This document shows positions 42 to 25,939 of a stretch of 32,000 nt of DNA, piece by piece. A program made the position numbers and the translations under genes. The notes under the pieces were generated by a model, which saw only the letters and a program-made list of their open reading frames with translations, made no database searches and had not been told where the DNA came from. Within the stretch, counting starts at the first letter, position 1. Each line of letters begins with the position of its first letter. Source of the DNA: Trichodesmium erythraeum IMS101 (GTDB lineage Bacteria > Cyanobacteriota > Cyanobacteriia > Cyanobacteriales > Microcoleaceae); assembly GCF_000014265.1 (NCBI RefSeq), contig NC_008312.1, positions 2,160,001 to 2,192,000 on the forward strand, read 5' to 3'.

Positions 42-473
42 CTAATCTGGGCATTCTGTTGGTCTTTCTGGGTGCTGGTCAGGACGTGAATATTTGTATG
101 GTTGTTGTTTAAAATCATAGAGTTTGTGGAGTAACCAACGTTCTTGATGATAGTCAGATTTTGGTCTAGGAGTTTGAATAGTATTTAGCCAATCTTGGGG
201 AAATTCTTGAATGATAAATTCCCATTGGCGTTTCAAGTTATAAGTGCGAATATCATGGAATATTTCTTCAGTAAAAATTTGTTTATCACCTATTGATTCG
301 TAATGAGTAACAAGTTTACCATAGTCAAATTTAAAGACTCGATTTGCAACAATTACATCACCTAAAAAAGTCTTTTTTTTATTACCTGCACAAACTCCGG
401 TCATTGCTAAACAACGAGGTTTTAATTCTGAAATAAGTCGAGTGACTAGATTATTAGTGTAGTTTTCTCCCAT
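42..473 (-). CDS. Truncated PNP_UDP-like (nucleosidase-fold) protein, 143 aa; possibly a gene remnant
   Basis: The ORF lies 26 nt downstream of the Roc-COR gene on the same strand. LISELKPRCLAMTGVCAGNKKKTFLGDVIVANRVFKFDYGKL aligns by eye with AIAYFKPDVILFVGVAGGIKDVQLGDVVAATKVYGYESGKV of the 6252..7331 product (central strands of the PNP/MTA-nucleosidase fold). The N-terminal strands and the EME and ISD catalytic segments are missing. The stop lies 41 nt from the window edge. Confidence 0.5.
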   Translation of the reverse strand: MGENYTNNLVTRLISELKPRCLAMTGVCAGNKKKTFLGDVIVANRVFKFDYGKLVTHYESIGDKQIFTEEIFHDIRTYNLKRQWEFIIQEFPQDWLNTIQTPRPKSDYHQERWLLHKLYDFKQQPYKYSRPDQHPERPTECPD

Positions 474-499
474 TTCTACAGGACGAGCTGCTGCTATAT

Positions 500-2746
500 T
501 TAATCGCGTACCATATATCTAAGTTTTGATAATAAATCTATATTTATTACATTATCAATTAAACTCTTTATATTAACTTCATTATAAGGATGATTCTCAC
601 AGGTAGTTTTTAGTCTACCATTACGAATCCATTCTTTTAATTTTTCAAGTTTATAAAAATGTGGATTCTGGCTATTTTTACAAGCAGCACAAGTACAAGG
701 AAATAAGTGATTATATTTGAGTCGATTATTATAGGAACTGTGAATTTTATCTAATAGGTAAGTTACGAGAGTCATTAAAGCCCGTTTTTGTCGTCCAGAA
801 ACCCTAATTTTTATTTCTCTTCTGTCGTAATATTCAATTACCTCTGCTCTGGTTTCATTTTGCTTGATAATAACTCCCCTTTTCCAAACATATTTCTGTT
901 GTTCAATATCTCGGTGCATATCTACAATAAACTGAGTGATAATTCCTCTGGGCATAAATTTGTAGGTGTAACGTAAAATCAAATTGTTATTTTCATCCCA
1001 GTCATATTCTGGTTGATTTTCTGTTAAAAGTTGAGGGGCAATATAGGTCTGAGAATTACCAAGAATTTTATAACATAGTTTAAATCTAATCATTAACTGG
1101 AGTAGTTCATCGCGCATATCCACATATTTTTCTTCATTCCAGATATTGGTTAAATCATCTTTGGTGAATTTGCCGAAGTTATTATAAACTGTCGGATTAT
1201 CTAAGATTTTATAAACTGCCGCTATTCCCCATTCTGGTTTGAGAATAACTGTTTTATTTAACAGTGGGTTATCCTGAAAATGAAGACAAATTCCTAAGTC
1301 ATGTAAATAGCGACTTAACTGTAATTTATACTCCAATTTTGTCAAGCCATTTTGTTTACAAATAGATAAATATTCTTCTAGACTAATATAGTTACGGGAG
1401 TCTAATTCTAAGATTTCCCGGACTTGTTTCCAAGTTTTAGGTAAACTACTGCCAATATGGGGTAATTCACTAATATGATGTTCGATTTCTCTGATAATTT
1501 CTTCTAAACCGCGATTAGTTTCAAGGTTGGTAGCTAAGATTTCTTTAATGTTAGTAAATTGCCCTTGCAATCCCCGTTGATTAATTTCTCGTTGCCGTTC
1601 ATGTTTCTCATTTTTCACAATTAATAAGGGGCTATTATCGCTTAATAATTCTACTACATTGAGCCAATAATAAAAGTCTGTATCTTCTTTGCGAGTATCA
1701 ACGACAAGGATATATAGAGAGCGTTTTGTTAAGAAAAATTGGTGGGTAGTGTGATAAATTTCTTGTCCGCCAAAATCCCAAATATTTATTTGAAAGTCAT
1801 TTTGGTTTTTTGTCTTAAAGTTGTACTGATAAACTTCAATTCCTTTGGTTGTATCTTCATCTTTGAGTTGATAGTTTGGGTTGATAATTTTATTAGCTAA
1901 AGCTGTTTTACCAGCTCCAGCTTCTCCAACAATTAGTAATTTAGCTTCACAGATATAATCTATTCCTTTTTCTGGAGGAAACTCTGCCAAAAACTTTTTA
2001 ATAACAGGATGAATTAAGAAAAACTTCTCATTACCTAATTTGACCTCCTCCCCATCTCCAAACTCTTCTTTTAACTCCTCAATTTCCTCCCCTAACCCCT
2101 CCTTTTCATCAACCAATAACTTTGCCAAAACATGAGAATTAAGCACCAAATTTTGATACTCTTTCCATAAATTAGTCTGCTCCAAAGGTTGAGCCAAAAT
2201 CTCCACTAAATAAGGAATTTTTTCTTGACCAGCTAACCCCAAAACCGGATTATCTTCCGGCAAACTTTCAGATAAAAAGCTCTCCATTTCCCGAATTGTC
2301 CTATCGGGATCTAAATAAGCTTGAGCAATCCATTCTTGAACCATTCTTAACTCTCCAGATGGTTTTCTCTCCCCTTGTTTATCCAAATAAAACCACAAAA
2401 ATTCAGCCAATTCAAAAGGTCGTCGCCAACCAAATTTATCCTCCAATTCCTCCAACAAAACTTCCCTCACACAAGGCTCAACCTCATAAACTCCCTCTTG
2501 TAAAGGACGACATAAAGAAGACAACAAAAAATTACTTTCTCCTATCCAAGGAATATTTTCCTCATCCAAAAAATTAATCCGAATTAAATTAACTAATTCA
2601 GGAGTTAAAATCAAAAACAACCCACAATGACAAGCAAGCTTAAAATTTTCTTCTCCAAAACGACGCTCAAATCTTACCACCTCTTCCACGGCATTCTCCG
2701 GAGATAGCCATAGCTTTCTAACAACCGCCTCAATAGTTTTAACCAT
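500..2746 (-). CDS. Roc-COR (Roco-type) GTPase with an uncharacterised ~260-aa N-terminal helical region
   Basis: 748-aa ORF whose start overlaps the vWA stop by 8 nt. It has a Ras-like G domain: G1 LLIVGEAGAGKTAL and G3 IWDFGGQE. The G4 position reads VKNEKHE rather than NKxD. A COR-like region follows (LPKTWKQVREIL ... YLHDLGICLHFQDNPLLNKTVILKPEWGIAAVYKILD). An acidic linker (EEIEELKEEFGDGEE) precedes the G domain, and there is a C-terminal Cys/His cluster CTCAAC...CENH. Confidence 0.85.
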   Translation of the reverse strand: MVKTIEAVVRKLWLSPENAVEEVVRFERRFGEENFKLACHCGLFLILTPELVNLIRINFLDEENIPWIGESNFLLSSLCRPLQEGVYEVEPCVREVLLEELEDKFGWRRPFELAEFLWFYLDKQGERKPSGELRMVQEWIAQAYLDPDRTIREMESFLSESLPEDNPVLGLAGQEKIPYLVEILAQPLEQTNLWKEYQNLVLNSHVLAKLLVDEKEGLGEEIEELKEEFGDGEEVKLGNEKFFLIHPVIKKFLAEFPPEKGIDYICEAKLLIVGEAGAGKTALANKIINPNYQLKDEDTTKGIEVYQYNFKTKNQNDFQINIWDFGGQEIYHTTHQFFLTKRSLYILVVDTRKEDTDFYYWLNVVELLSDNSPLLIVKNEKHERQREINQRGLQGQFTNIKEILATNLETNRGLEEIIREIEHHISELPHIGSSLPKTWKQVREILELDSRNYISLEEYLSICKQNGLTKLEYKLQLSRYLHDLGICLHFQDNPLLNKTVILKPEWGIAAVYKILDNPTVYNNFGKFTKDDLTNIWNEEKYVDMRDELLQLMIRFKLCYKILGNSQTYIAPQLLTENQPEYDWDENNNLILRYTYKFMPRGIITQFIVDMHRDIEQQKYVWKRGVIIKQNETRAEVIEYYDRREIKIRVSGRQKRALMTLVTYLLDKIHSSYNNRLKYNHLFPCTCAACKNSQNPHFYKLEKLKEWIRNGRLKTTCENHPYNEVNIKSLIDNVINIDLLSKLRYMVRD

Positions 2747-3899
2747 GCAAATTAACTCCCATTGGAAAAGGATATCCTAACAATATTTTAACCAAATCAT
2801 TTAATCCTTGTGGATTTAAAGAATACATAGGAATAAACGTAGCAATATCTTCAGCAGTGGTCATCCTCCACTGAAATTCTGGAACAGGGTTTAACCATCC
2901 ATATAAATAAGTTTTATCAGATAATTGCCGTATAAATTCCTTAGTTTGATGGAATCTTTCACTATCATAAGTGCGCCGTGCCGCCCCCCCATCACTAACA
3001 ATAACCACACTATTATTACCAACTTCCTGAGATAAAATTTCCTCAATAGGCAAAGGCTTAGTTAAATTAGGTTTAGTAAATAGATAACCCCTCGGCACAT
3101 TGTGAAAATAAAAAATATTCTTTTGATTTAACAACCCTACTTTTTCAATACTTTCCTGTAAAGTATCAATCAACAATTTAAAAGGAGACATGGAACCTTC
3201 ACAGTCAATTAACAAAACCAACTTAACTTGATTTTTTCTAGAAGGTTGTAAAACCACACCAGAGAAAAAACCCATTTTATAAAATAGATTAATTGTTCCT
3301 TGAACATCTAAATTTTCCGGCGCACCCTCTCGTTTTAACAACCTTAAATTACGCCAAATACTAGTCATTTCTCGGCGAGTTATTGGTAAACGGGGAATCA
3401 AATTATAACTTTGTCTAAATCTCAGTTTTATTGGGGTTATTTCTGACAGAGATTTTCTCGAAAAATCGCGAATTGGGATTGAATTAGTTGGTTGATTAGG
3501 TTGAGGTTTATTTTCCTTTTGAACTTTAGATGAAACTTGAGAAATAGGATTACTATTAATATCTAAATTTTCAGTCTTTTGAGGAGGAGAAGTAGAATCC
3601 TCATCAATTTTAGGCAATGGAGATTTATCAGCTTCTAGTAATTGCTTTTCTAACTCAGGTCTAACTAACTCCTCAAACAATTGATTAAAAATATATTGGT
3701 CTTCTAAAGACTTAACCCATAACAAACATAAAAGTCGTTTTAAACGTTCAATATCCTGCCACGCCCCTCGAGATTGAATCATTTTAATCGCCAGTAAATA
3801 TTCAGAAATTCCCACGGGAATATCCTTTTGCCTCAACCTATTAAATAAAGGCAATAAAATAGTTTCAAATTCAACGATTAATAATTCAAAGTCAACCAT
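2739..3899 (-). CDS. vWA-domain protein, CoxE-like N-terminal region
   Basis: 386-aa ORF. The C-terminal half shows vWA hallmarks: KLVLLIDCEGSMSPF (MIDAS-like, but D-x-E-x-S instead of D-x-S-x-S) and NSVVIVSDGGA. The N-terminal helical part (FNRLRQKDIPVGISEYLLAIKMI...) resembles CoxE-type vWA proteins. A P/S/N/Q-rich linker lies between the two. The gene is paired with a MoxR gene upstream, which is the classic arrangement. Confidence 0.8.
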   Translation of the reverse strand: MVDFELLIVEFETILLPLFNRLRQKDIPVGISEYLLAIKMIQSRGAWQDIERLKRLLCLLWVKSLEDQYIFNQLFEELVRPELEKQLLEADKSPLPKIDEDSTSPPQKTENLDINSNPISQVSSKVQKENKPQPNQPTNSIPIRDFSRKSLSEITPIKLRFRQSYNLIPRLPITRREMTSIWRNLRLLKREGAPENLDVQGTINLFYKMGFFSGVVLQPSRKNQVKLVLLIDCEGSMSPFKLLIDTLQESIEKVGLLNQKNIFYFHNVPRGYLFTKPNLTKPLPIEEILSQEVGNNSVVIVSDGGAARRTYDSERFHQTKEFIRQLSDKTYLYGWLNPVPEFQWRMTTAEDIATFIPMYSLNPQGLNDLVKILLGYPFPMGVNLHG

Positions 3900-4062
3900 T
3901 TATTAATTTTCAGCTTATCTACTGGTTTGGTATTGGATTTTGTTGCTTTATTAGTGTTTAGTTTCGCGAATCAACCAAATCTAAGCTCTTTTACCTCAAC
4001 CTATTAAATAAAGGCAATAAAAGAGCTTCAAATTCAACAATTAATAATTCAAAATCAATCAT
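3831..4062. repeat. Direct duplication of the vWA gene 5' end (69-bp copies at 3831-3899 and 3994-4062, offset 163 bp)
   Basis: The two copies differ at 5 of 69 positions. Copy 2 encodes a relic start, MIDFELLIVEFEALLLPLFNRLR-stop. Its ATG (4062-4060) overlaps the MoxR stop (4057-4055) in an ATGATTGA arrangement. Confidence 0.9.
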
Positions 4063-5092
4063 TTTTTAACTTTTCTATAGTATTTTGGTCACTTTGATTT
4101 TTTACTAAAGTATGGAGAAAAGGAAGTTGATATAATTTAGTCTCCCTTAAAACTTCAGCTTTGATTTCCTGATACTCCTGAGTTGTATTATTTGGCAATC
4201 CTCTTTCTAAAAGTCGCAACCAATTAATAAACTCTCCCGTACTAGGTTTTTTCCGCCAAGAAATATCGTCACGAAGTTCTACAAATTTAGTTAAAGCAAC
4301 TTCAAAAAGAGGAGAAACATCCTGTTGAAAATGATTAATAATAATCTTCCTCAAATCCTCCTTATTCGGAAAGCCAATATAATAAAACAGACAGCGACGT
4401 AAAAAAGCCTTAGGTAATTCTTTCTCTTGATTACTCGTAATAATAATCAAAGGCAAAAAATCCTTTCTGTCTTCCCGCTCCTCTCCTCGAAGAGCATCAT
4501 ATTTCAAGTTTTTTACCTCCTTTACTTCAAACTGTAACCTATCTAAAACCAACAGTAAATCATTAGGAAAATCAATATCAGCCTTATCAACTTCATCAAC
4601 CAAAACCACCGAAGGAATATTATTTTTATCAGAAAGCTCAATAGCCTCTCCTAACTTGCCCAACTCTATATATGTTTCCCGGTCAATAACATTAGTTACT
4701 TGAGGTGAATTATTAATATCTTTCTCCTCTAATTTACCCTGAATCAATCTATATTCTTGAAGGTCATATAAACGGCGAATATTATCATAAGTATAGAGTA
4801 ATTCTTCAGCCCGAATCGTAGAACGAATATAACATTCTTTCAAAGGATAACCCAACTCATAAGCAATAGAATAAGCAAGACGAGTTTTACCACAACCAGG
4901 TTCACCTTCCAACAATAAAGGGCGGCGTAAATAGAGAGCATCATTGACTGCCTCAGCCAAATTTTTAGAAGCAATATAAGGTTCTTTTTTTATGGGTATA
5001 TCTAGAAATTCTTTCCCCTTTTCGTCTTTTAATCGTTCATACTTTTGGTCATTACCTTGACCTTCATATTGTCTATTTGCTAAGTCGTTCAT
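4055..5092 (-). CDS. MoxR-type (AAA_5-like) AAA+ ATPase
   Basis: 345-aa ORF with Walker A LLLEGEPGCGKTRLA, Walker B PSVVLVDEVDKADIDFPNDLL, a sensor-1-like IIITSNQ, and arginines in LPKAFLRRC. It sits directly upstream of a vWA gene. Confidence 0.9.
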   Translation of the reverse strand: MNDLANRQYEGQGNDQKYERLKDEKGKEFLDIPIKKEPYIASKNLAEAVNDALYLRRPLLLEGEPGCGKTRLAYSIAYELGYPLKECYIRSTIRAEELLYTYDNIRRLYDLQEYRLIQGKLEEKDINNSPQVTNVIDRETYIELGKLGEAIELSDKNNIPSVVLVDEVDKADIDFPNDLLLVLDRLQFEVKEVKNLKYDALRGEEREDRKDFLPLIIITSNQEKELPKAFLRRCLFYYIGFPNKEDLRKIIINHFQQDVSPLFEVALTKFVELRDDISWRKKPSTGEFINWLRLLERGLPNNTTQEYQEIKAEVLRETKLYQLPFLHTLVKNQSDQNTIEKLKND

Positions 5093-5107
5093 TTTTTCAA
5101 TATTTTT

Positions 5108-6181
5108 TCAATTAATTGCTCGTAGTTCGTCAATAATTCCTTCAAGAGTATTATAAGTAGAAAGCAAATGACCATCAGCATTTCTTAACTTTCTAAGGCA
5201 TGTATTTATCATATCATCTTGTATCTGTAATTTTTGAAGATAACCCCTAAACCAGTCACATAATTCATTAATTTGAAATGATTTAGGTATGCTCAGGTTA
5301 ATACAACCCTGAATAGATTGTTTTATCTTAACATTAGCAAAAATAATAATTAAACAGCGACTTTTATTTTCTAAATAGCAATTACATTTCGTTTTTATTT
5401 CTGATAAAAAAATATCTGTCATCGAATTTAAATTTTTTTTATTGATATTGTAATTCCAAATTATTAATACAACATCTAAAGGATCAGTCTCAGCTAATAA
5501 ATCAGTTATTTGATTTATGTTGTTATTTTTTAAGTCATCATCAATTGATTTTAAATTCCGACTCAATCTAATCTCACGAGACCAATAATCACGTTGAGTT
5601 TTCTCCTGTAATTCGTGGAGAATTCTCTCAATAATATAATTCTTTAAAATTGTGTACTCTTCCCCAAGACTAAAAGCAAAAACTCCTTGATAATCTAATG
5701 CTTTTCTAAATTTGTAGACTAACTCATCTAAATCATATTTAACAATTATATTGTTATCTTTATTATTATCTTTATTATTATCTTTTATTTTGATAGGTGT
5801 TTTAGATGTCGGTATTTCATGGTTTTGTTGCCTTTTTTTAGACATACGTGAACGATGATCAGGAATTTGGTTTATTCGCGATCGCTTGGGCTTAAGTTTT
5901 TCAATATATCCTTTGATAGTCAATCTTTCATCTGGATCTAATTTATTTTGCAAATATATCAAAAAAGATTCTAAATCTTCTGGTTTCTTTAAAATTAAGC
6001 TATAAAAATTAGTGACTAACTCTTTCACAGGTAACTTGTAATCTATTGTCGTTATATCAATTTGTACCTCACTAATATTTATCATTGCTTTTAAACCTTC
6101 GCTAGGTTTTTCTAGCCCATTAAAATAGTCAGTTAAAATTTCCTCTAACTTAATTTTTTCATCAATACTCAACTTGAACAT
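5108..6181 (-). CDS. Adaptor protein: N-terminal effector-associated-type domain, KDNN repeat linker, C-terminal degenerate NTPase-like domain (function unknown)
   Basis: 357-aa ORF that ends 15 nt upstream of the MoxR start. Residues ~9-80 are about 50% identical to the C-terminus of the 6252..7331 product. The linker contains KDNNKDNNKDNN, encoded by 3 x 12 bp at 5752-5787. The C-terminal part shows strand-helix patterns reminiscent of a P-loop NTPase without a P-loop (GVFAFSLGEEYTILKNYII; DVVLIIWNYN; CLIIIFANV). Confidence 0.7.
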   Translation of the reverse strand: MFKLSIDEKIKLEEILTDYFNGLEKPSEGLKAMINISEVQIDITTIDYKLPVKELVTNFYSLILKKPEDLESFLIYLQNKLDPDERLTIKGYIEKLKPKRSRINQIPDHRSRMSKKRQQNHEIPTSKTPIKIKDNNKDNNKDNNIIVKYDLDELVYKFRKALDYQGVFAFSLGEEYTILKNYIIERILHELQEKTQRDYWSREIRLSRNLKSIDDDLKNNNINQITDLLAETDPLDVVLIIWNYNINKKNLNSMTDIFLSEIKTKCNCYLENKSRCLIIIFANVKIKQSIQGCINLSIPKSFQINELCDWFRGYLQKLQIQDDMINTCLRKLRNADGHLLSTYNTLEGIIDELRAIN

Positions 6182-6251
6182 AAATCAGCTTATACCGGTT
6201 TTACTTTAACTATAATTTACTATTGATATAGAGTGGTAAATATCCCCATCA

Positions 6252-7331
6252 TTACCGAATCATTGCAATGATTTTATTAACAAATAATTGTTCATCAGAA
6301 TCTTTAAGTAAATGACTCCGAAAAACTCTCAGAAAAGATAGAGAATTCTCCCTACTTTTAAAAATTTCAGGATAAAAATTAGGAATTAACTCTCTCACAG
6401 GTAAATTGTAATCTATTGCCGCTGTATCAACCTGTATCTGACTAATATTTACTAATGACTTTAAATGTTGACCAGGTTTCTGCCGAGCATTAAAATAGTC
6501 AATTAAAACCTCTTGTAATTTCATACTTTCCTCAAAATTATCAGCCAAAAAATTAGAAGACTTTGGATGACTTTCCCCATTATATTCTTGATTTCTACTT
6601 AACCAAAACTTCCCTAAAACCTCAAAAGCAAAAGCACTAGCATGACGAGCAGCTATTTCTTGAAAACCCCCTTCATCCGCCCTACTTTTCCCATCAATTA
6701 AATCAGAAATACCCCGAATAATTAAAGCCGAAACCTGTTGATTAGCATGAGCAACTTTTAAAATACCATGACCTTCCATTTCCACTGCTAAAGCATCACC
6801 ATAATTGTGCTGAAGAAACTCAAATAAATCTGATTTCTTATTAGTAACCACCTTTTCTCCCGCAGCAATAGGCTCAACAAATACATTAGGTTGAGCTGAA
6901 TCAGAAAATCTAGCTAACCAATCTCTTTTTCTTGCCTCAGCTTTTGCCCGTTGAATCAAATTATAAGTTGAACGGCCAACATCCGGCCTTGGCCTAAAAG
7001 TCTCAGCCACCTTTCCCGACTCATAACCATAAACCTTAGTAGCAGCAACCACATCTCCCAATTGGACATCCTTAATTCCTCCAGCTACCCCAACAAATAG
7101 AATCACATCAGGCTTAAAATAAGCGATCGCTCTCTCAGCCTCCATCGCTGCAGGAGAATTTCCAGCACCAGTCTGGACAATACCCACTTCCCACTCTTGG
7201 CCACCAACAGAAAATTGGCCCCTCTCATAAATTGTCCCATTAGGGTGTATCTCCTCCCTCAAATCACTAAGATGAGCAGATACCGCCATATATTCGATAC
7301 GAATTGCTGTTAAAATAACCGCACAAACCAT
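6252..7331 (-). CDS. PNP_UDP_1-family nucleosidase/phosphorylase fused to a C-terminal effector-associated-type domain
   Basis: 359-aa ORF and first gene of the cassette. Residues 1-~240 form a complete MTA/SAH-nucleosidase-like fold (VQTGAGNSPAA, ILFVGVAGGI, LAVEMEGHG, IIRGISDLIDG). The EME and ISD motifs match the catalytic Glu and Asp motifs of E. coli MTAN. Residues ~270-359 form a helical domain homologous to the N-terminus of the next gene. Confidence 0.85.
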   Translation of the reverse strand: MVCAVILTAIRIEYMAVSAHLSDLREEIHPNGTIYERGQFSVGGQEWEVGIVQTGAGNSPAAMEAERAIAYFKPDVILFVGVAGGIKDVQLGDVVAATKVYGYESGKVAETFRPRPDVGRSTYNLIQRAKAEARKRDWLARFSDSAQPNVFVEPIAAGEKVVTNKKSDLFEFLQHNYGDALAVEMEGHGILKVAHANQQVSALIIRGISDLIDGKSRADEGGFQEIAARHASAFAFEVLGKFWLSRNQEYNGESHPKSSNFLADNFEESMKLQEVLIDYFNARQKPGQHLKSLVNISQIQVDTAAIDYNLPVRELIPNFYPEIFKSRENSLSFLRVFRSHLLKDSDEQLFVNKIIAMIR

Positions 7332-7469: not shown

Positions 7470-7682
7470 GTAAACATTCAGCACTTAAAAAATCAGCTCT
7501 CAGGTTTTGAATTTATGCAAGTAACTACTAAGGTTACCTGATGACCAATTACATAACATACCTAATATACGGATGCTGTCTAAACAAACTTTTTAATTCT
7601 CCTTAGAGACTAATTCCTACTTCCAATATAATCAGTGAATAACTCATAGCTAATAGCTGAATTCTAATCCCTGAATGCTTAC
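7470..7682. mobile_element. MITE-like element, copy A (213 bp)
   Basis: Terminal inverted repeats are GTAAACATTCAG ... CTGAATGCTTAC. The internal sequence (e.g. AACTACTAAGGTTACCTGATGACCAATTACATAACA) is about 75% identical to a second copy at 16512-16769. There is no coding capacity. Confidence 0.65.
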
Positions 7683-7778
7683 TATTAGAGTGAATATTAT
7701 ATTCAGGCGATCGCATAAAATAATATTGCCTAATTGATAATTATATTAACCCAGTAATTTTAGCCGTCAAAAAAATCC

Positions 7779-8330
7779 ATGAACGACAAAAAAACCATAC
7801 TTCAAGCTTTTCTACTCGAATATGAAAAATTGAAAGAAGAGCAACTAAAACGTATTGAATTCCGAGACCAAATGATTTATATAACCCTAGGAATATTTGG
7901 TAGCATTCTCTCCTTTGCTCTATCAAACAAAACTAATTTGTATGCCCTCTTAGTTATTCCTTGGGTTTGCCTAATTCTCGGTTGGACTTATATAGTTAAT
8001 GACGAAAAAATTTCAGCTATCGGAAAATATATTCGACTGACTCTCACTGAAAAAGTCAAAACACAAACAGATTATTCAGATATAGAATCTATATTTAGTT
8101 GGGAAATTGCTCATAGAAGTGATAAAAGAAGAAAAAGGCGCAAAATAGAGCAGTTAATTATTGATGAAATTACCTTTGTTTTCTCTGGTTTAGTAGCTTT
8201 ATTTACTTTCTGGTCTCTAGAGACAAATCTTCCCTTAGTAATTCATATATTTTGTACCTTTGAACTTCTTCTATTAGCAGTTCTAGCCATAGAAATTATC
8301 ATTTATGCCGATCTAGCTAAAGGTCGATAA
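7779..8330 (+). CDS. Hypothetical 4-TM membrane protein with an N-terminal amphipathic/coiled segment
   Basis: 183-aa ORF divergent from the cassette. Hydrophobic segments are IYITLGIFGSILSFAL, LYALLVIPWVCLILGWTYIV, ITFVFSGLVALFTFWSL and VIHIFCTFELLLLAVLAIEIIIYA. A basic loop reads HRSDKRRKRRK. I did not recognise a family. Confidence 0.55.
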   Translation: MNDKKTILQAFLLEYEKLKEEQLKRIEFRDQMIYITLGIFGSILSFALSNKTNLYALLVIPWVCLILGWTYIVNDEKISAIGKYIRLTLTEKVKTQTDYSDIESIFSWEIAHRSDKRRKRRKIEQLIIDEITFVFSGLVALFTFWSLETNLPLVIHIFCTFELLLLAVLAIEIIIYADLAKGR

Positions 8331-16232: not shown

Positions 16233-17635
16233 TATAGTAATCCGTGGGTAGGTCGCGACAGATATAATAGTAAGAATAGCATATCCAGTCAAAATAAAAA
16301 AAATAAGCGTTATGGATGAACTAGATGATTTTATCAATCAAATATGCATAGTCTAAAGAAATAAAAAGAGCCTAAGCGGTCAAAATGATTTTGTCGGGAA
16401 AATCCTAACATGAAGTCAAAGAATTATTAAATGTTTCTCACAGTTTTATTAGGGAATGGAAAAACCAAGCACTATTTCATGGCGTAGAAAGTTTAAGGCT
16501 TCAATATAAAGGTAAGCATTCAGATATTAGCAGTCAGCTCTGAGTTTTTTAGTATATGCAAACAACTACTAAGGCTACCTGATGACTAATTACATAACAA
16601 ACTTTCCTTTCCTTTCTTTTCCTTTCCTAACATACGGAATGCTACTTAACAGGAATTATGTGCAAACATAACTTTTTAATTTTCTTTGGATACTAACTAA
16701 TTCGTCTTTCTAATATAATGAGTTAATGACTCATAGGTGATGGCTGATAGCTGACTGCTAAATGCTTAAATATCAAGTAGTAAAATGTCATTTAAATGCT
16801 GTCGAAAAAGAGCAAATAATTGAGTTATTGAAGGCACAATATTATCTGAAATTATCAATTATATTTACAAATTTACAAATTTACAAAAATATTTAAAGAA
16901 GCAATATAATTTAGTATTTGAGTTCTTAAAAAAATATTATAATTTGCTCAAATAAGCTGAAATAAGTTGAAAAAAAACTCAAAAAAAGAATCTAGCTAAA
17001 AATGATGAATTAGTGAAAGTAAAAAAAGTTAGGGAGGAATTATTGACTAAATAGTAACCATAAATAGAAGCTGAAAACCTAACAGTTTTTGTGATTTACT
17101 AATGCCATATTTTATGAGGTTATCTTTCAGGCTATATTTTGGTAAGAAAAGATAAAACAATATAAATTCCGATTAAAAATGATTGGAAAATACAAGCTTA
17201 TTATAGAGCGTTAGACTATAAAAATAAGGGATTTATTATGCAATAATTAAAGAGTAAAAATACTGAAAATATCATTAAATTTGTTAAATATTTACAAGAG
17301 CAAAAATAAGAAAAAAAAATTTGTAATATTTGGGGGAGGTGCAACTGATCATAACTCTTAATAATTTCGAGAGTATTTGATGTTAATTAATCAAAATTTA
17401 CCAGAAGAAGAATAGTTGATAAATTGTACAAAATTTGCTCCAAATTTCTCTGAACAAAACCCGGTTGAAGATATGTATTTTTCAGGCAAAAATTTAATCA
17501 GAAAATTTCATCATCTTTGCAGTTATTTTAAAGTATTTAAGTTATTAGAAGTTTTTGGTGTTCTGGTCAAATATTTGATTTTCCTAAACTTTTTCAGTAT
17601 AGAATTTTGCCACAAGCAATTATAGGATTGCTATA
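16233..17635 (+). mobile_element. Decayed IS630-family insertion sequence (transposase pseudogene) interrupted by a MITE
   Basis: The ends are TATAGTAATCC (16233-) and GGATTGCTATA (-17635), which form an inverted pair. Frame fragments include KRAKAVKMILSGKS*HEVKELLNVSHSFIREWKNQALFHGVESLRLQYKG, then (after the MITE) LNAVEKEQIIELLK. The C-terminal relic is APNFSEQNPVEDMYFSGKNLIRK, compared with the IS630 consensus PPYSPxLNPIExxW. Many stops are present. Confidence 0.65.
16512..16769. mobile_element. MITE-like element, copy B (258 bp), nested in the IS630 relic
   Basis: The termini are GTAAGCATTCAG ... CTAAATGCTTAA. It is homologous to copy A at 7470-7682 and carries an extra CTTTC-rich insert at about 16592-16628. 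It splits the IS630 transposase reading frame after ...LRLQYKG. Confidence 0.65.
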
Positions 17636-17666: not shown

Positions 17667-19061
17667 TTAATGCAAATAATTTGATATTATATACTGCTTC
17701 AGCACAGCTAAAACAGCAAATAAATTATCTTGTTTTGTTACTAAACAACGTCTTTTTAATGATTGTATTCCTTTCCATAAATCTGAGTGTAAAAGTGGAA
17801 AGTCTGGGGAAGTATTATAAATATCTACTGCTGTTTCTTGACTTGCCATCCATAATATTACTTGCTTTTCTAGCTCTGACAAACGCTGAAAATATTTGTC
17901 TAATATCGGTTCTAAATCTCCTAAATATATACTAGGGCAAGATAAAATTTGAGCTATATTTCCATTAAATAAATCTTCGACCGCATCAGCAATAATATTT
18001 AACCACAAAGGATTTCCGCTATAGAGATTAATCAACTCTAAGGATTGCTCTTCATCTGTTAAGTTTATATCTTTTAAAATTGCTACTGCTGACTTTCCTA
18101 AACCATCAATTTTTAAAGTCTGACAATGATTATTAGTTGATATTATTTTTGGTTTTTCTTGACTCAGAAGTAACAAACAACTTTGATGAGATAATGTAGC
18201 TATTTGTTGGAAAAATTTACCATAATTTTCATGTTCTTGCAGATAAGTACCAGCTAGTTTTCCACTAGCAAAAATTTCTTGTAAATTATCAAAAATAAGT
18301 AAACAACGATATTTCCGGAGGTAATCTATTAATTGATTGTTGATGGTTTGAGACTTAGAAATTTTTTCTTTTTTTTGGGATGTAAAATCTGTTTGAGATA
18401 AAAATTTAAGAATGTTTATTTGTAGAGATTCACAGGAGGAGTAGTTGTCAATATTGCGCCAGATTATATAATCAAATTTATTTTTTATTTGTGCAATTAA
18501 TTCTACAGTGAGAGTACTTTTGCCGATGCCAGTTAATCCTAATATGGTGATGATGCGGCTGTGATTTTGTAGTATCAATTGTTTGAGGGTGGTAACTTCG
18601 GAGTGGCGATCGCACAGGGGATATAAATCAGGAGCTTCAGATAAATCATAATAATTTTCTGGGTTAGTGTTGTCTTGGTTTTGGTCAATGAGAGTGGGGG
18701 AAGATTTGTTTTTAGGGGTGGGAGATTGTTTGTTTTCTCCACAGATATTTATATGATTACTATTAATATTTACGCAGTCATCACCTGTATTTGAAATATG
18801 TGAAAAGTGGATTTTTTCTAATATGGAACGAGCATTAGATTTTTTGATATTTTTTCCTAAAATATCCGAAAGAAGTTTCCATAATTTTGTACCTACCTGT
18901 TTGATATGGTCGGGATGACGTTGACAATCATCTGCTATTTGGGGGTATTTTTTACCATTTAAAGTACCTTTTAATACTTCCTTTTGTAGAGAGGTTAAAT
19001 GTTCTCTAGTTTTGGTGAATATTAAATTGTCTGCTAATTCTACTAATGTGTCAATGTCCAT
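17667..19061 (-). CDS. NB-ARC/STAND ATPase with an N-terminal HTH-like domain and no C-terminal sensor repeats
   Basis: 464-aa ORF. The N-terminus (LTSLQKEVLKGTLNGKKYPQIADDCQ...IKQVGTKLWKLLSDILGKNIKKSNARSILEKI) is the HTH-like module common at the start of cyanobacterial STAND/WD40 proteins. Walker A is ITILGLTGIGKSTL, Walker B is RCLLIFDNLQ, and the GxP motif is YSGNPLWLNIIA. A winged-helix-like tail (LSELEKQVILWMA) follows. The stop lies 31 nt from the IS630 relic end. Confidence 0.85.
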   Translation of the reverse strand: MDIDTLVELADNLIFTKTREHLTSLQKEVLKGTLNGKKYPQIADDCQRHPDHIKQVGTKLWKLLSDILGKNIKKSNARSILEKIHFSHISNTGDDCVNINSNHINICGENKQSPTPKNKSSPTLIDQNQDNTNPENYYDLSEAPDLYPLCDRHSEVTTLKQLILQNHSRIITILGLTGIGKSTLTVELIAQIKNKFDYIIWRNIDNYSSCESLQINILKFLSQTDFTSQKKEKISKSQTINNQLIDYLRKYRCLLIFDNLQEIFASGKLAGTYLQEHENYGKFFQQIATLSHQSCLLLLSQEKPKIISTNNHCQTLKIDGLGKSAVAILKDINLTDEEQSLELINLYSGNPLWLNIIADAVEDLFNGNIAQILSCPSIYLGDLEPILDKYFQRLSELEKQVILWMASQETAVDIYNTSPDFPLLHSDLWKGIQSLKRRCLVTKQDNLFAVLAVLKQYIISNYLH

Positions 19062-23388: not shown

Positions 23389-25057
23389 CTATACGCAATC
23401 TTGATTAACAATTTTCTGATATTTTTTATTAAAAATAACTAACTTATCTCGTTTTTTAATAACTATCATTGACAACCTAAAATTCATTTGTATGGTGCCA
23501 TTATTAACTTTAATTTCTACCTGTAATAATTTTTTTTGATATGGCCTAAATAATTGATGTGCGAGTAGAATTTTACTGAGTAAATAATGGCGAGTATATT
23601 TTAAATGAGTAGACTGATTTTTATCCTTCCAATCTGTCAAAATATGTTATTTTATCAAACTATCAATATCTAGTTGATTAGTACCTAAAAAATCAATAAT
23701 AATTTTACAAATTTTTTGACTTAAAAAAGGTTGATTACCACTCCTATCAAAAACTTTTTATCAAACAGCTTCTAGTTCATCAACCACTCCTTTTAAAACC
23801 TCAGTTAATTTTTTTCATCTTTAAAAGTTAACTGTCTTAATTCAATCCCATTATTAATATTAAAAGGAGTCTGTTTGCTATCTATAACCAAATCTTCTGG
23901 AGTTGCTGCTCCAAAAAAACAAAAACTAACCATTGTAATTAATTTTATAGCTTCTAATTGATGTAATTCAATATTTTTATTTGGTAAACTTAAAGGTGAA
24001 ATAGCTTTTAATATTTGACTAAAAACTGCTTTAATATTTTTCTGATTAGACAAATTTTTAAATGTGCACTTAAATGTTGTTGATAGATTCCACTTTCAGT
24101 AGTAGTAGTATATTTTAATAGCTCTTCAATTGTTAATTCATCCTCCAACATTTTATACAATTCTAATCTGATTAAATAGGGATGACCTCTTATTATAGAC
24201 ATCAAAGAAACTACTACTGTTATTGGTAATTTATATAAATCTGCTAACTTAGTGACTTGCTCTGGTATAAATTCTTTTAATTCTATAGGTAAACCAACAT
24301 TAAAAGGAGAAAGATGAATATCTAATTTGCCATAATATTCTGTAGAATAAGCAATTACCATTCGTAAATTTTCCAAAATTTCTTTATGGTTGCTCGCCTC
24401 ATACCAACTTTTTAATATGAGAAAAAAGTCTCTAGATATTTCTGGATAGTTAAAAATTTTATCGACTTCATCTAAGATTAAAACTACTACTTTATCTTAA
24501 TGATATAAGAGATCCTCAATTTTTTCAGTTCAAGATATTTTACCATTTTTGTCGTCCCATCTATTCCTGTTAGGAGCATCAGGAAACTGACGTTTAATAT
24601 TTTTACTGAATGCTTTAATAAAATTATTAATATTTTTAATATTTTCTAGTTCAATTAGTTTGTCAAATCTGAGATAAATAGATTTATATTTATTTTTAAT
24701 TGCATGAGCTTCTATCTGCGTTAATAGAGAATTTATACCCATTTGTTTTGGCATTTTAATTTTGATTAAACAATCAGGAACTTCTATATTTTTATAGTAT
24801 TTTTCTTCGATATAACATTTTCTAATTCGATAACTTTCTATATAAAAAGCAGAATCTAGTTTTTCTTGTCTACCAGGAATTACAATTTTGCGAGCACTAG
24901 AAAAATATTTATCTTTCAACTTCTGACAAACTAAGTAGGGTTGATATTTATTGAATATTTCTACTAAAAAATCTTGAGACTATTGAGCATAACTATAGTT
25001 TTTTGAAAAACCAAATTTAACAGCGATCGCCTTTAATTTTTTACTGATATTTGTCAT
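23389..25057 (-). pseudogene. One or two decayed AAA_35-like (PF14516-type) conflict-system NTPase genes
   Basis: The collinear minus-strand fragments are as follows. The P-loop region is IKIKMPKQMGINSLL (24530..24919). Next come SPFNVGLPIELKEF...IIRGHPYLIRLELYKM...ESGIYQQHLSAHL (24008..24376) and FFGAATPEDLVIDSKQTPFNINNGIELRQLTF (23805..24053). The last two are GNQPFLSQKICKII (~23700) and TDWKDKNQSTHLKYTRHYLL (23389..23640). Stops and frameshifts separate them. Confidence 0.5.
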
Positions 25058-25121
25058 CTACTAATTCATATAATCAGATTTTTTTTGTTTTGATAACCAG
25101 CCAAAAATAACTTTAGTACTT

Positions 25122-25939
25122 ATGACTCATTATCTGTTAATTAATAGTATAAAAATATGTTAAAATACTTCTTTATTAATATTTTTTATATCTAAATATA
25201 ACACTGGTATTTTGCCTTTTTCTGAGATGATATTAATAGCTTAGTGGCACAAGAATTTTGCTTATTAATATATTTTTAGTATTTGGGGAATAGAGAGAAA
25301 CAGAAAAGGGATGCAGTAGAAAATTACAATAATTATTGTATAGATGTTTAGATGAATATTCAAAACGTGAATTATATTTTCACCTATCTTCTGGCTTAAT
25401 ACTGAGGTGAAAAAAATGTCATATTTTTTCTAGGTTAATTCTCAGGGGGAAAAAATATCACATTATTATTTTTCAATGGTAGAAACCGGATTTGTATTTA
25501 GACCCCTTACTATACTTACTTTTATTTCCAATGACTCATTATCTGTTAATTAATAGTATAAAAATATGTTAAAATACTTCTTTATTAATATTTTTTATAT
25601 CTAAATATAACACTGGTATTTTGCCTTTTTTTGAGATGATATTAATAGCTTAGTGGCACAAGAATTTTGCTTATTAATATATTTTTAGTATTTGGGGAAT
25701 AGAGAGAAACAGAAAAGGGATGCAGTAGAAAATTACAATAATTATTGTATAGATGTTTAGATGAATATTCAAAACGTGAATTATATTTTCACCTATCTTC
25801 TGGCTTAATACTGAGGTGAAAAAAATGTCATATTTTTTCTAGGTTAATTCTCAGGGGGAAAAAATATCACATTATTATTTTTCAATGGTAGAAACCGGAT
25901 TTGTATTTAGACCCCTTACTATACTTACTTTTCTTTCCA
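25122..25939. repeat. Tandem duplication, 2 x 409 bp, 2 mismatches
   Basis: Copy 1 is 25122-25530 and copy 2 is 25531-25939. The only differences I found are C/T in GCCTTTTT(C/T)TGAG and A/C in CTTTT(A/C)TTTCCA. The unit is AT-rich with no convincing ORF. Confidence 0.9.

Follow-up and report, generated by a model that had tools for sequence, protein, structure and literature searches.

Kaur et al. (2020; eLife, PMC7159879) defined the MoxR–vWA ternary systems, including the iSTAND systems, together with the effector-associated domains (EADs), and reported AP-GTPase+COR as a rare vWA-linked module in cyanobacteria, the iSTAND systems using AIG GTPases "instead of AP-GTPases". Kaur, Iyer, Burroughs and Aravind (2021; eLife, PMC8195603) described iSTAND2, a divergent inactive STAND domain with an N-terminal EAD1, EAD8 or bDLD3, and an α-helical linker, vWA-L, which carries effectors and is encoded by a separate gene beside vWA in iSTAND2 systems. 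The source data of the latter study list two proteins of Trichodesmium erythraeum, namely WP_011611104.1 (357 aa), labelled "??+iSTAND2→MoxR", and ABG50724.1/Tery_1428, labelled "vWA-L+AP-GTPase+COR". Here we analyse a cassette of T. erythraeum IMS101, Tery_1428–1432, that encodes a PNP nucleosidase, an EAD–iSTAND2 protein, a MoxR ATPase, a vWA protein and a vWA-L protein bearing a Roc-COR GTPase, and that lies in a stretch of 32,000 nucleotides (contig NC_008312.1, positions 2,160,001 to 2,192,000; hereafter the window).

The original prediction, made from the letters of this DNA, had placed the cassette among the vWA–MoxR conflict systems predicted by the Aravind group, correctly in light of the 2021 catalogue, and had called its architecture uncharacterised, which holds for experiments but not for computation: the cassette is an iSTAND2-type MoxR–vWA ternary system, already catalogued, of a class that is purely computational. 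What is new relative to the catalogue is the assignment of the "??" domain, the PNP partner, the complete operon and the behaviour of the locus at population level. No paper mentioning Tery_1428–1432 was found in our literature search, and a 2026 preprint on DUF4062/NIR contains no mention of MoxR–vWA systems.

Results

A complete iSTAND2-type operon in the canonical gene order

All six open reading frames (ORFs) of the cassette lie on the minus strand (6252-7331, 5108-6181, 4055-5092, 2739-3899, 500-2746 and 42-473), with spacings of 70, 15, 155, -8 and 26 nt, exactly as first reported. Five of them are intact and tightly coupled, which bears out the proposed operon-like organisation, and they follow the canonical order of the family: PNP–EAD8' (P1; Tery_1432, ABG50728), EAD8'–iSTAND2 (P2; WP_011611104), MoxR (P3; Tery_1430), vWA (P4; Tery_1429) and vWA-L–cargo (P5; Tery_1428), where EAD8' denotes a divergent EAD8. 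The vWA product and ABG50725 are 100 % identical, and ABG50724 (Tery_1428), ABG50726 and ABG50728 are among the other products; P2 was equated with WP_011611104.1 from its length, genome and neighbour. The description as a six-gene cassette stands for these five genes but not for ORF6, a pseudogene remnant of cargo replacement, and the system continues past the edge of the window.

This layout matches that of the published iSTAND2 systems of multicellular cyanobacteria (PMC8195603), in which an EAD+enzyme gene is followed by EAD+iSTAND2, MoxR, vWA and a separate vWA-L gene with variable effectors, although the EAD-linked enzyme is a PNP here, whereas mainly trypsin and rarely a cyclic nucleotide monophosphate cyclase were reported there. 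With the iSTAND and VMAP ternary systems (PMC7159879) the cassette shares a MoxR–vWA core, a third component acting as sensor or scaffold, EAD adaptors and hypervariable effectors; unlike the VMAP systems it has no VMAP-C domain and no VMAP-type N-terminal motifs in MoxR, and unlike the iSTAND systems it has a third component that is related only distantly to Pfam iSTAND.

Across genomes, a vWA-L profile matched 1,822 representative clusters, with the domain nearly always at the extreme N-terminus. Of 54 genome loci, 53 have the vWA-L gene immediately after vWA, the exception having too little flanking sequence; where the flank was long enough (47 loci), MoxR precedes in 45. Of 44 loci, 41 encode an inactive-STAND third component (iSTAND2-like in 22, iSTAND-like in 19); upstream of MoxR, relatives of P2 occur in 22 further genomes, and DUF4062 plus Pfam iSTAND takes this place in 19 more distant ones. 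The order third component, MoxR, vWA, vWA-L is thereby conserved in about 50 genomes of several phyla, with genes typically overlapping by 4, 8 or 17 nt at related loci. Conserved co-occurrence was therefore found for these four components, but the Roc-COR module, which had been expected among them, is not part of it. Among 47 vWA-L proteins the cargo comprised TIR (13), FGE-sulfatase (11), CHAT (5), NB-ARC (5), TPR and WD40, and also RelA/SpoT and pentapeptide repeats, a repertoire typical of conflict systems; three vWA-L representatives carry a Ras/Roc-like GTPase, none of them with COR.

A divergent EAD8 shared by the PNP protein and the inactive STAND protein

P1 (6252-7331) consists of a PNP domain at residues 5-238 (window 6618-7319; Pfam PNP_UDP_1, 9e-27) and an EAD8-like adaptor at residues ~264-355 (6267-6542), while P2 (5108-6181, 357 aa), the component that defines the system, combines an EAD at residues 6-93 (5903-6166), a low-complexity linker and a C-terminal iSTAND2 domain at residues ~141-357 (5111-5761). 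As originally proposed, the adaptor is common to both: residues 266-351 of P1 and 6-89 of P2 are 47 % identical (E = 8e-23), and the relationship is also seen as a DNA repeat (5930-6165 vs 6300-6535). When compared with EAD8 through a local seed, the shared domain gave an HHalign probability of 97.1 % (E = 5.4e-11), an earlier comparison with a distant Ktedonobacteraceae seed having been uninformative, and at about ten other loci an EAD8 profile directly matched P2 homologues at their N-termini. Judged from these comparisons, the "??" domain of the catalogued P2 is a divergent form of EAD8 with its partner copy on the PNP protein, an assignment that is new. This divergent type always occurred as a PNP/iSTAND2 pair. 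In addition, a 610-aa metagenome protein (P0009) is a natural fusion of a P1-type PNP to iSTAND2 (a P2 homologue) across the two EAD copies, apparently produced by recombination between them, and is direct evidence that P1 and P2 belong together.

The second protein had initially been described as an EAD-adaptor protein; its EAD was recognised correctly, but the inactive STAND part was missed. As a single sequence, P2 had no match in a Pfam search, VMAP included. A clade profile of its C-terminal domain (25 relatives) aligned with the Pfam-iSTAND clade over 194 columns (HHalign 95.9 %, E = 5.7e-9), which is the sole link between the two, as a jackhmmer search from the P2 C-terminal domain failed to merge with that clade. 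The comparison was made profile against profile because the C-terminal domain was too poorly predicted for a fold search in an AlphaFold2 (AF2) model (predicted local distance difference test, pLDDT, ~50). The domain has a β-α-β layout, with no GK[ST] at the P-loop position and no Walker A lysine, and this, together with the HHalign link, identifies P2 as an EAD joined to an inactive STAND. The names iSTAND2 for this domain and vWA-L for the N-terminal domain of P5 follow the labels in the 2021 source data; the iSTAND2 assignment draws on the Pfam-iSTAND clade comparison and the published listing.

The two parts of P2 have diverged very differently. Between IMS101 and strain 21-75 the iSTAND2 part is only 33-75 % identical per 30-residue block (71 % overall), as against 90-100 % for the EAD of P2 and 97-99 % for the neighbouring genes, and the sequences from metagenome populations fall into two or more mosaic haplotypes that are not strictly linked to cargo type. 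Linkage of haplotype and cargo was rejected on account of one contig (L143) that combines an IMS101-type iSTAND2 tail with LRR cargo. The iSTAND2 domain is thus a second hypervariable spot besides the cargo, which is likewise new. Separately, a threefold KDNN expansion was observed in the EAD–iSTAND2 linker (window 5750-5785, P2 residues 133-144), which is absent from all 18 aligned homologues.

P1 is the predicted effector of the cassette. It aligns with methylthioadenosine/S-adenosylhomocysteine (MTA/SAH) nucleosidases, and its VEMEG (residues 183-187) and GISD (207-210) match their catalytic Glu and Asp motifs and are conserved; in PADLOC it matched the CBASS "PN-superfamily" effector (1.4e-18) and PDC-M60C (5e-19). 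The PNP domains of Cap17 (CBASS) and DtcC (Detocs) have been shown experimentally to cleave ATP and dATP (Rousset et al., 2023; bioRxiv 10.1101/2023.01.24.525353). Like them, P1 is a PNP-fold effector that is attached to a module for immune signalling and keeps the catalytic Asp, but where they use cyclic oligonucleotide or phosphorelay signalling, P1 would presumably depend on EAD tethering and MoxR–vWA remodelling, and in sequence it is at least as close to the MTA/SAH nucleosidases.

MoxR and vWA

The MoxR-type AAA+ ATPase P3 (4055-5092; Pfam AAA_5, 6e-11, also AAA) is 99.1 % identical in strain 21-75 and has intact Walker A (GEPGCGKT, 63-70) and Walker B (LVDEVD, 164-169) motifs, as had been noted from the sequence. 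Its first 60 residues contain no Trp and hence lack the VMAP-type N-terminal WxhapG and PsWRxa motifs. P4 (2739-3899) is a CoxE-like vWA co-chaperone that scored 23.5 bits (4e-5) against Pfam VWA_CoxE, slightly under the gathering score of 26.4, and 5e-10 against NCBIfam SAV_2336_NTERM; the majority of its homologues bear PF05762. With this marginal hit all domains named in the original prediction were recovered in Pfam, the others being PNP_UDP_1, AAA_5, Roc and COR.

The 155-nt gap between the two genes holds an 86-nt duplicate (3988-4073, minus strand) of the vWA 5' end, covering the first ~23 codons and 91 % identical, as a direct repeat, to 3825-3910. Between the ATG of this copy and the MoxR stop codon there is an overlap of 8 nt, and the copy plus a 77-nt insert make up the gap. 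The ancestral 8-nt MoxR–vWA overlap is thus kept as a relic, in agreement with the earlier view that a duplication had inflated the spacing. The gap is also found in strains 21-75 and MAG_R02, whereas other genomes typically show overlaps of 8 or 4 nt.

Strain-specific replacement of the cargo on vWA-L

The start codon of P5 (500-2746) overlaps the vWA stop codon by 8 nt. Its first 259 residues (1970-2746), the conserved element missed when the protein was described as a plain Roc-COR GTPase, constitute vWA-L, an α-helical linker domain bearing variable cargo, which has 94 % identity to its counterpart in strain 21-75 and 71 % to that in Okeania, with clear conservation in Mastigocoleus as well. 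As modelled by AF2 (pLDDT 79.7; predicted template modelling score, pTM, 0.75) it is mainly helical, and a fold search of the model against the PDB yielded no significant match, the best being a partial winged-helix-like one (E ≈ 2). Residues 260-748 (500-1969) form the Roco GTPase module, with Roc at 269-380 (5e-26), COR-A at 436-574 (4e-46) and COR-B at 587-732 (8e-41) in Pfam, PDB matches of 1.5e-52 (4WNR) and ~1e-41 (CtRoco), and the G1 (GEAGAGKT) and G3 (DFGGQ) motifs that had been reported.

The junction between linker and cargo is sharp. Up to window 1971 (P5 codon 259) the DNA of IMS101 and that of 21-75 run collinearly with 97.5 % identity, past which they are wholly different (2,281 bp vs 1,160 bp) until 98.8 % identity resumes; the IMS101-specific cargo DNA spans about 513-1970. 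After residue 259 the vWA-L proteins are unrelated to each other, carrying Roc-COR in IMS101, LRR plus two EAD8 domains in 21-75, PNP plus EAD8 in Okeania and STAND plus TPR in Mastigocoleus. The LRR cargo is the common allele (all five field contigs), while the Roc-COR allele is found in IMS101, GBRTRLIN201 and IMS101-like contigs, IMS101 and GBRTRLIN201 being otherwise identical in their flanks; at 90 % clustering, the Roc-COR protein has 7 members, compared with 135 for MoxR and 127 for the PNP protein. The Roc-COR had been taken for a second core NTPase switch of the cassette, a role that did not survive the strain comparison: it is instead a swappable, strain-specific cargo on vWA-L, which is a new finding, the 2021 study having tabulated the Roc-COR cargo without discussion and not having described strain-level replacement.

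The closest metagenome relatives of the Roc-COR (60-79 % identity) were stand-alone Roco proteins in 80 of 80 cases, 71 with N-terminal LRRs; none had vWA-L and none had a MoxR or vWA neighbour. Since the nearest relatives are all stand-alone Roco proteins, the cargo was presumably captured from a Roco gene; the donor search returned nothing above 79 % identity and no paralogue inside the window. The module has the Roc–COR-A–COR-B tandem of prokaryotic Roco proteins (C. tepidum Roco and M. barkeri Roco2; PDB 4WNR, 3DPU, 6HLU, 8R4B) and is 60-79 % identical to many LRR–Roc–COR proteins, from which it differs in having vWA-L in place of the N-terminal LRR, no C-terminal output domain and NEKH rather than NKxD at G4. 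As a side observation, the IMS101-like contigs L004-L007 are nucleotide-identical to the window over ~11.8 kb save for dense patches in the Roc-COR (1262-1357, 1400-1412, 1694-1750 and 1816-1831; e.g. 12 differences in 96 bp). Hypermutation of the diversity-generating retroelement type was rejected for these patches, as the substitutions are of all types and not adenine-specific, and we suspect that paralogous Roco genes are the cause, either by gene conversion or by cross-talk during assembly.

The displaced cargo has left a trace. A 902-bp stretch that starts 12 nt before the Roc-COR stop aligns free of indels and at 95 % identity with the PNP region of a downstream EAD8–PNP gene. ORF6 (42-473, minus strand) is its first piece; it is terminated by a stop codon in frame, misses ~60 residues at the start of the PNP fold and is 75 % identical to residues 316-458 of the vWA-L–PNP–EAD8 protein of Okeania. 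ORF6 is thus what remains of a displaced PNP cargo and not a sixth gene. Past the left edge of the window, the contig L004 (13910-18349) continues with a second PNP fragment (129 aa, called there in the same frame as ORF6), an IS605-family TnpB (441 aa), an EAD8 protein (321 aa) and the EAD8–PNP protein (493 aa). This last protein matched the CBASS PN-effector model far better than P1 did (1.7e-29, 100.7 bits), and the ORF6 remnant also matched it more strongly than P1. The EAD8 modules of the 21-75 cargo are 90-94 % identical to those of the downstream EAD8 genes, which suggests that repeated modules have been shuffled inside the locus; the IMS101 Roc-COR cargo has no EAD8 that would tether the downstream EAD8 and EAD8–PNP proteins. 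A further arrangement was observed in Mastigocoleus testarum (contig L015, 6952-13228), where vWA and vWA-L–STAND–TPR stand without a detectable MoxR, behind an upstream 553-aa STAND-like protein with a C-terminal EAD8.

Surroundings of the cassette

The surroundings had been called accessory in character. A short repeated element resembling a miniature inverted-repeat transposable element does lie in the upstream region (7493-7694), with a related copy 9 kb away (16500-16602), but the immediate upstream neighbours are housekeeping genes. Promoter and terminator scans gave matches no more numerous than in shuffled sequence. Divergent from the cassette, a 183-aa ORF (7779-8330, plus strand) is predicted to have four transmembrane segments; it is 100 % conserved in strain 21-75, has 88 % nucleotide identity beside the same system in Okeania and has no match in Pfam or PADLOC. 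SLATT-type pores accompany PNP/TIR systems, and the ORF could be a membrane partner of the system or unrelated to it. Elsewhere in the window we confirmed the two other STAND-like loci, a 464-aa NB-ARC STAND ORF (17667-19061, minus strand) and an AAA_35 gene split into two ORFs and likely a pseudogene (24008-24919, minus strand), both unconnected to the cassette, and observed a direct repeat at 25112-25820 whose 300-nt units are 98 % identical and spaced 409 nt apart.

Discussion

On balance, we think that the cassette probably serves this filamentous cyanobacterium as an iSTAND2-type MoxR–vWA ternary conflict system, directed against invaders and most plausibly acting through abortive infection. 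The inactive STAND protein would act as scaffold or sensor and hold the PNP nucleosidase through a homotypic contact of the paired EAD8-like domains, while a MoxR hexamer with the vWA co-chaperone would remodel the P1–P2 complex at the expense of ATP and so set the activation threshold. vWA-L would tether a variable arm to vWA; in most Trichodesmium this arm consists of an LRR and two EAD8 domains, through which the downstream EAD8–PNP would be recruited, and in IMS101 it has been overwritten by a Roc-COR, presumably from a stand-alone Roco gene, that would act as a nucleotide-dependent dimer/monomer switch. Once triggered, the PNP would cleave an adenine nucleotide (ATP or dATP, by analogy with Cap17 and DtcC), arresting the infected cell and protecting the trichome. 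PNP-mediated abortive infection with the Roc-COR as an added switch is favoured because of the logic of the family, the PNP activity known from CBASS and Detocs, the documented dimer-to-monomer switch of CtRoco on GTP binding and the Esr pathway of Actinomycetales, in which a MoxR–vWA pair is needed for threat sensing (bioRxiv 2026, PMC13622651). In Esr, too, MoxR–vWA acts as the relay between a variable sensing protein and the defensive response, which is the only experimental support for this logic, although Esr has a β-propeller surface sensor, a kinase/FHA relay and Esx secretion as output, and no iSTAND, EAD or PNP.

Several observations weigh against this interpretation, each of whose mechanistic steps is inferred. 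P1 scored higher against an MTA/SAH nucleosidase model (85.8 bits) than against the PADLOC model of the PN effector (Cap17; 64.7 bits). The MIDAS of P4 is non-canonical (DCEGSMS, residues 232-238, not DxSxS); over the 54 loci the column reads D-x-[E/Q/G]-G-S-M-x-P-F, most of the family thus deviating from DxSxS. At G4 the Roc domain has NEKH where 4WNR has NKID (canonical NKxD), so that its nucleotide specificity is uncertain. The cassette sits between housekeeping genes, its immediate upstream neighbours being ycf9, ribH and a desaturase, and no recognisable defence island was found among the neighbouring genes inspected, nor did PADLOC-DB v2 yield a complete known system for the cassette proteins, so that neither of these two checks suggested in the original prediction came out in its favour. 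Matches in that database were restricted to the PNP proteins (PDC-M60C, CBASS effector), apart from weak generic AAA matches of MoxR, and P2 and vWA had none. Finally, the IMS101 allele has lost the EAD8 tethers of the common allele, by which it may be impaired, and bears pseudogene debris and a TnpB, and the identity of the sensing arm is contested, Kaur et al. favouring iSTAND and Doré et al. (2024; PMC10907252) the variable arm.

The model of Doré et al. implies the opposite flow of signal, with the variable vWA-L arm sensing, MoxR–vWA relaying to the third component, the EAD-tethered PNP as sole effector and iSTAND2 as a mere scaffold. The common Trichodesmium cargo is indeed an LRR, well known as a module for ligand binding, repeats or lectin domains make up many of the cargoes at other loci, and the PNP is located on the iSTAND2 side; however, cargoes are often effector-like enzymes (TIR in 13 of 47, CHAT in 5, PNP), iSTAND2 is hypervariable between strains in a sensor-like manner and the Roc-COR has no ligand-binding repeats, and we regard this reversal as possible but somewhat unlikely. 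A question specific to IMS101 is whether the native cargo was destroyed together with its EAD8 tethers when the Roc-COR was captured, leaving the cassette as non-functional or partly functional debris in a pseudogene-rich genome. Decay of this kind would fit the stop-interrupted PNP remnant directly after the Roc-COR stop and the adjoining IS605-family TnpB, the duplicated vWA 5' end, the degenerate G4, the rarity of the allele seen in its cluster size, and the low coding density elsewhere in the window with its split AAA_35 gene. The five core ORFs are nevertheless all intact, the fusion is in frame and falls exactly at the vWA-L domain boundary, two isolates have retained the allele, the tether between P1 and P2 has not been affected, and the vWA duplication is older than the strain split and left the gene intact, all of which makes decay quite unlikely in our estimation.

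Least plausible of all, and in our judgement highly improbable, is a housekeeping MoxR–vWA chaperone for enzyme maturation, like CoxD/CoxE or RavA/ViaA, beside which an MTA/SAH nucleosidase and an unrelated GTPase lie by chance. It draws on the match of vWA to the CoxE family, the generic nature of MoxR, the housekeeping neighbours and the best curated matches of P1, which are MTA/SAH nucleosidases, yet far under their cut-offs. It does not account for the adaptor common to P1 and P2, for their natural fusions or for an inactive STAND as third component; genes for client metalloenzymes are absent, the cargo of the fourth gene is swapped from strain to strain, with TIR, CHAT and NB-ARC among the examples known from the family, and the locus is explicitly catalogued among conflict systems.

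Within the favoured conflict-system interpretation, a bolder suggestion, which we put forward only tentatively and consider unlikely, is that the vWA-L slot is a natural cassette-exchange site, at which recombination at a domain boundary allows Trichodesmium populations to insert entire sensor or switch modules, taken from other parts of the genome, into a MoxR–vWA–iSTAND2 chassis, the Roco module of IMS101, a homologue of LRRK2, being an immune switch. If so, this would be the first functional context for bacterial Roco proteins, and the Roc-COR and LRR–EAD8 alleles together with the two iSTAND2 haplotypes would be a natural allelic series for dissecting ternary systems.

The individual findings, namely the EAD8'–PNP pairing, the abrupt change of cargo between strains through capture of a Roco module, the remnant of a PNP cargo and the hypervariability of iSTAND2, are incremental: they amount to a useful natural experiment that would not surprise a specialist, and leave the classification unchanged, as this kind of system and its proteins were already published. 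Collectively, MoxR–vWA ternary systems are a large predicted immune or cell-death class enriched in multicellular bacteria, and the locus represents the class in complete and compact form in a nitrogen-fixing cyanobacterium that is in culture and of ecological importance. It links bacterial Roco GTPases to a predicted conflict system, and its natural alleles, differing solely in the cargo and the putative sensor domain, offer a comparison for deciding which arm senses and which executes.

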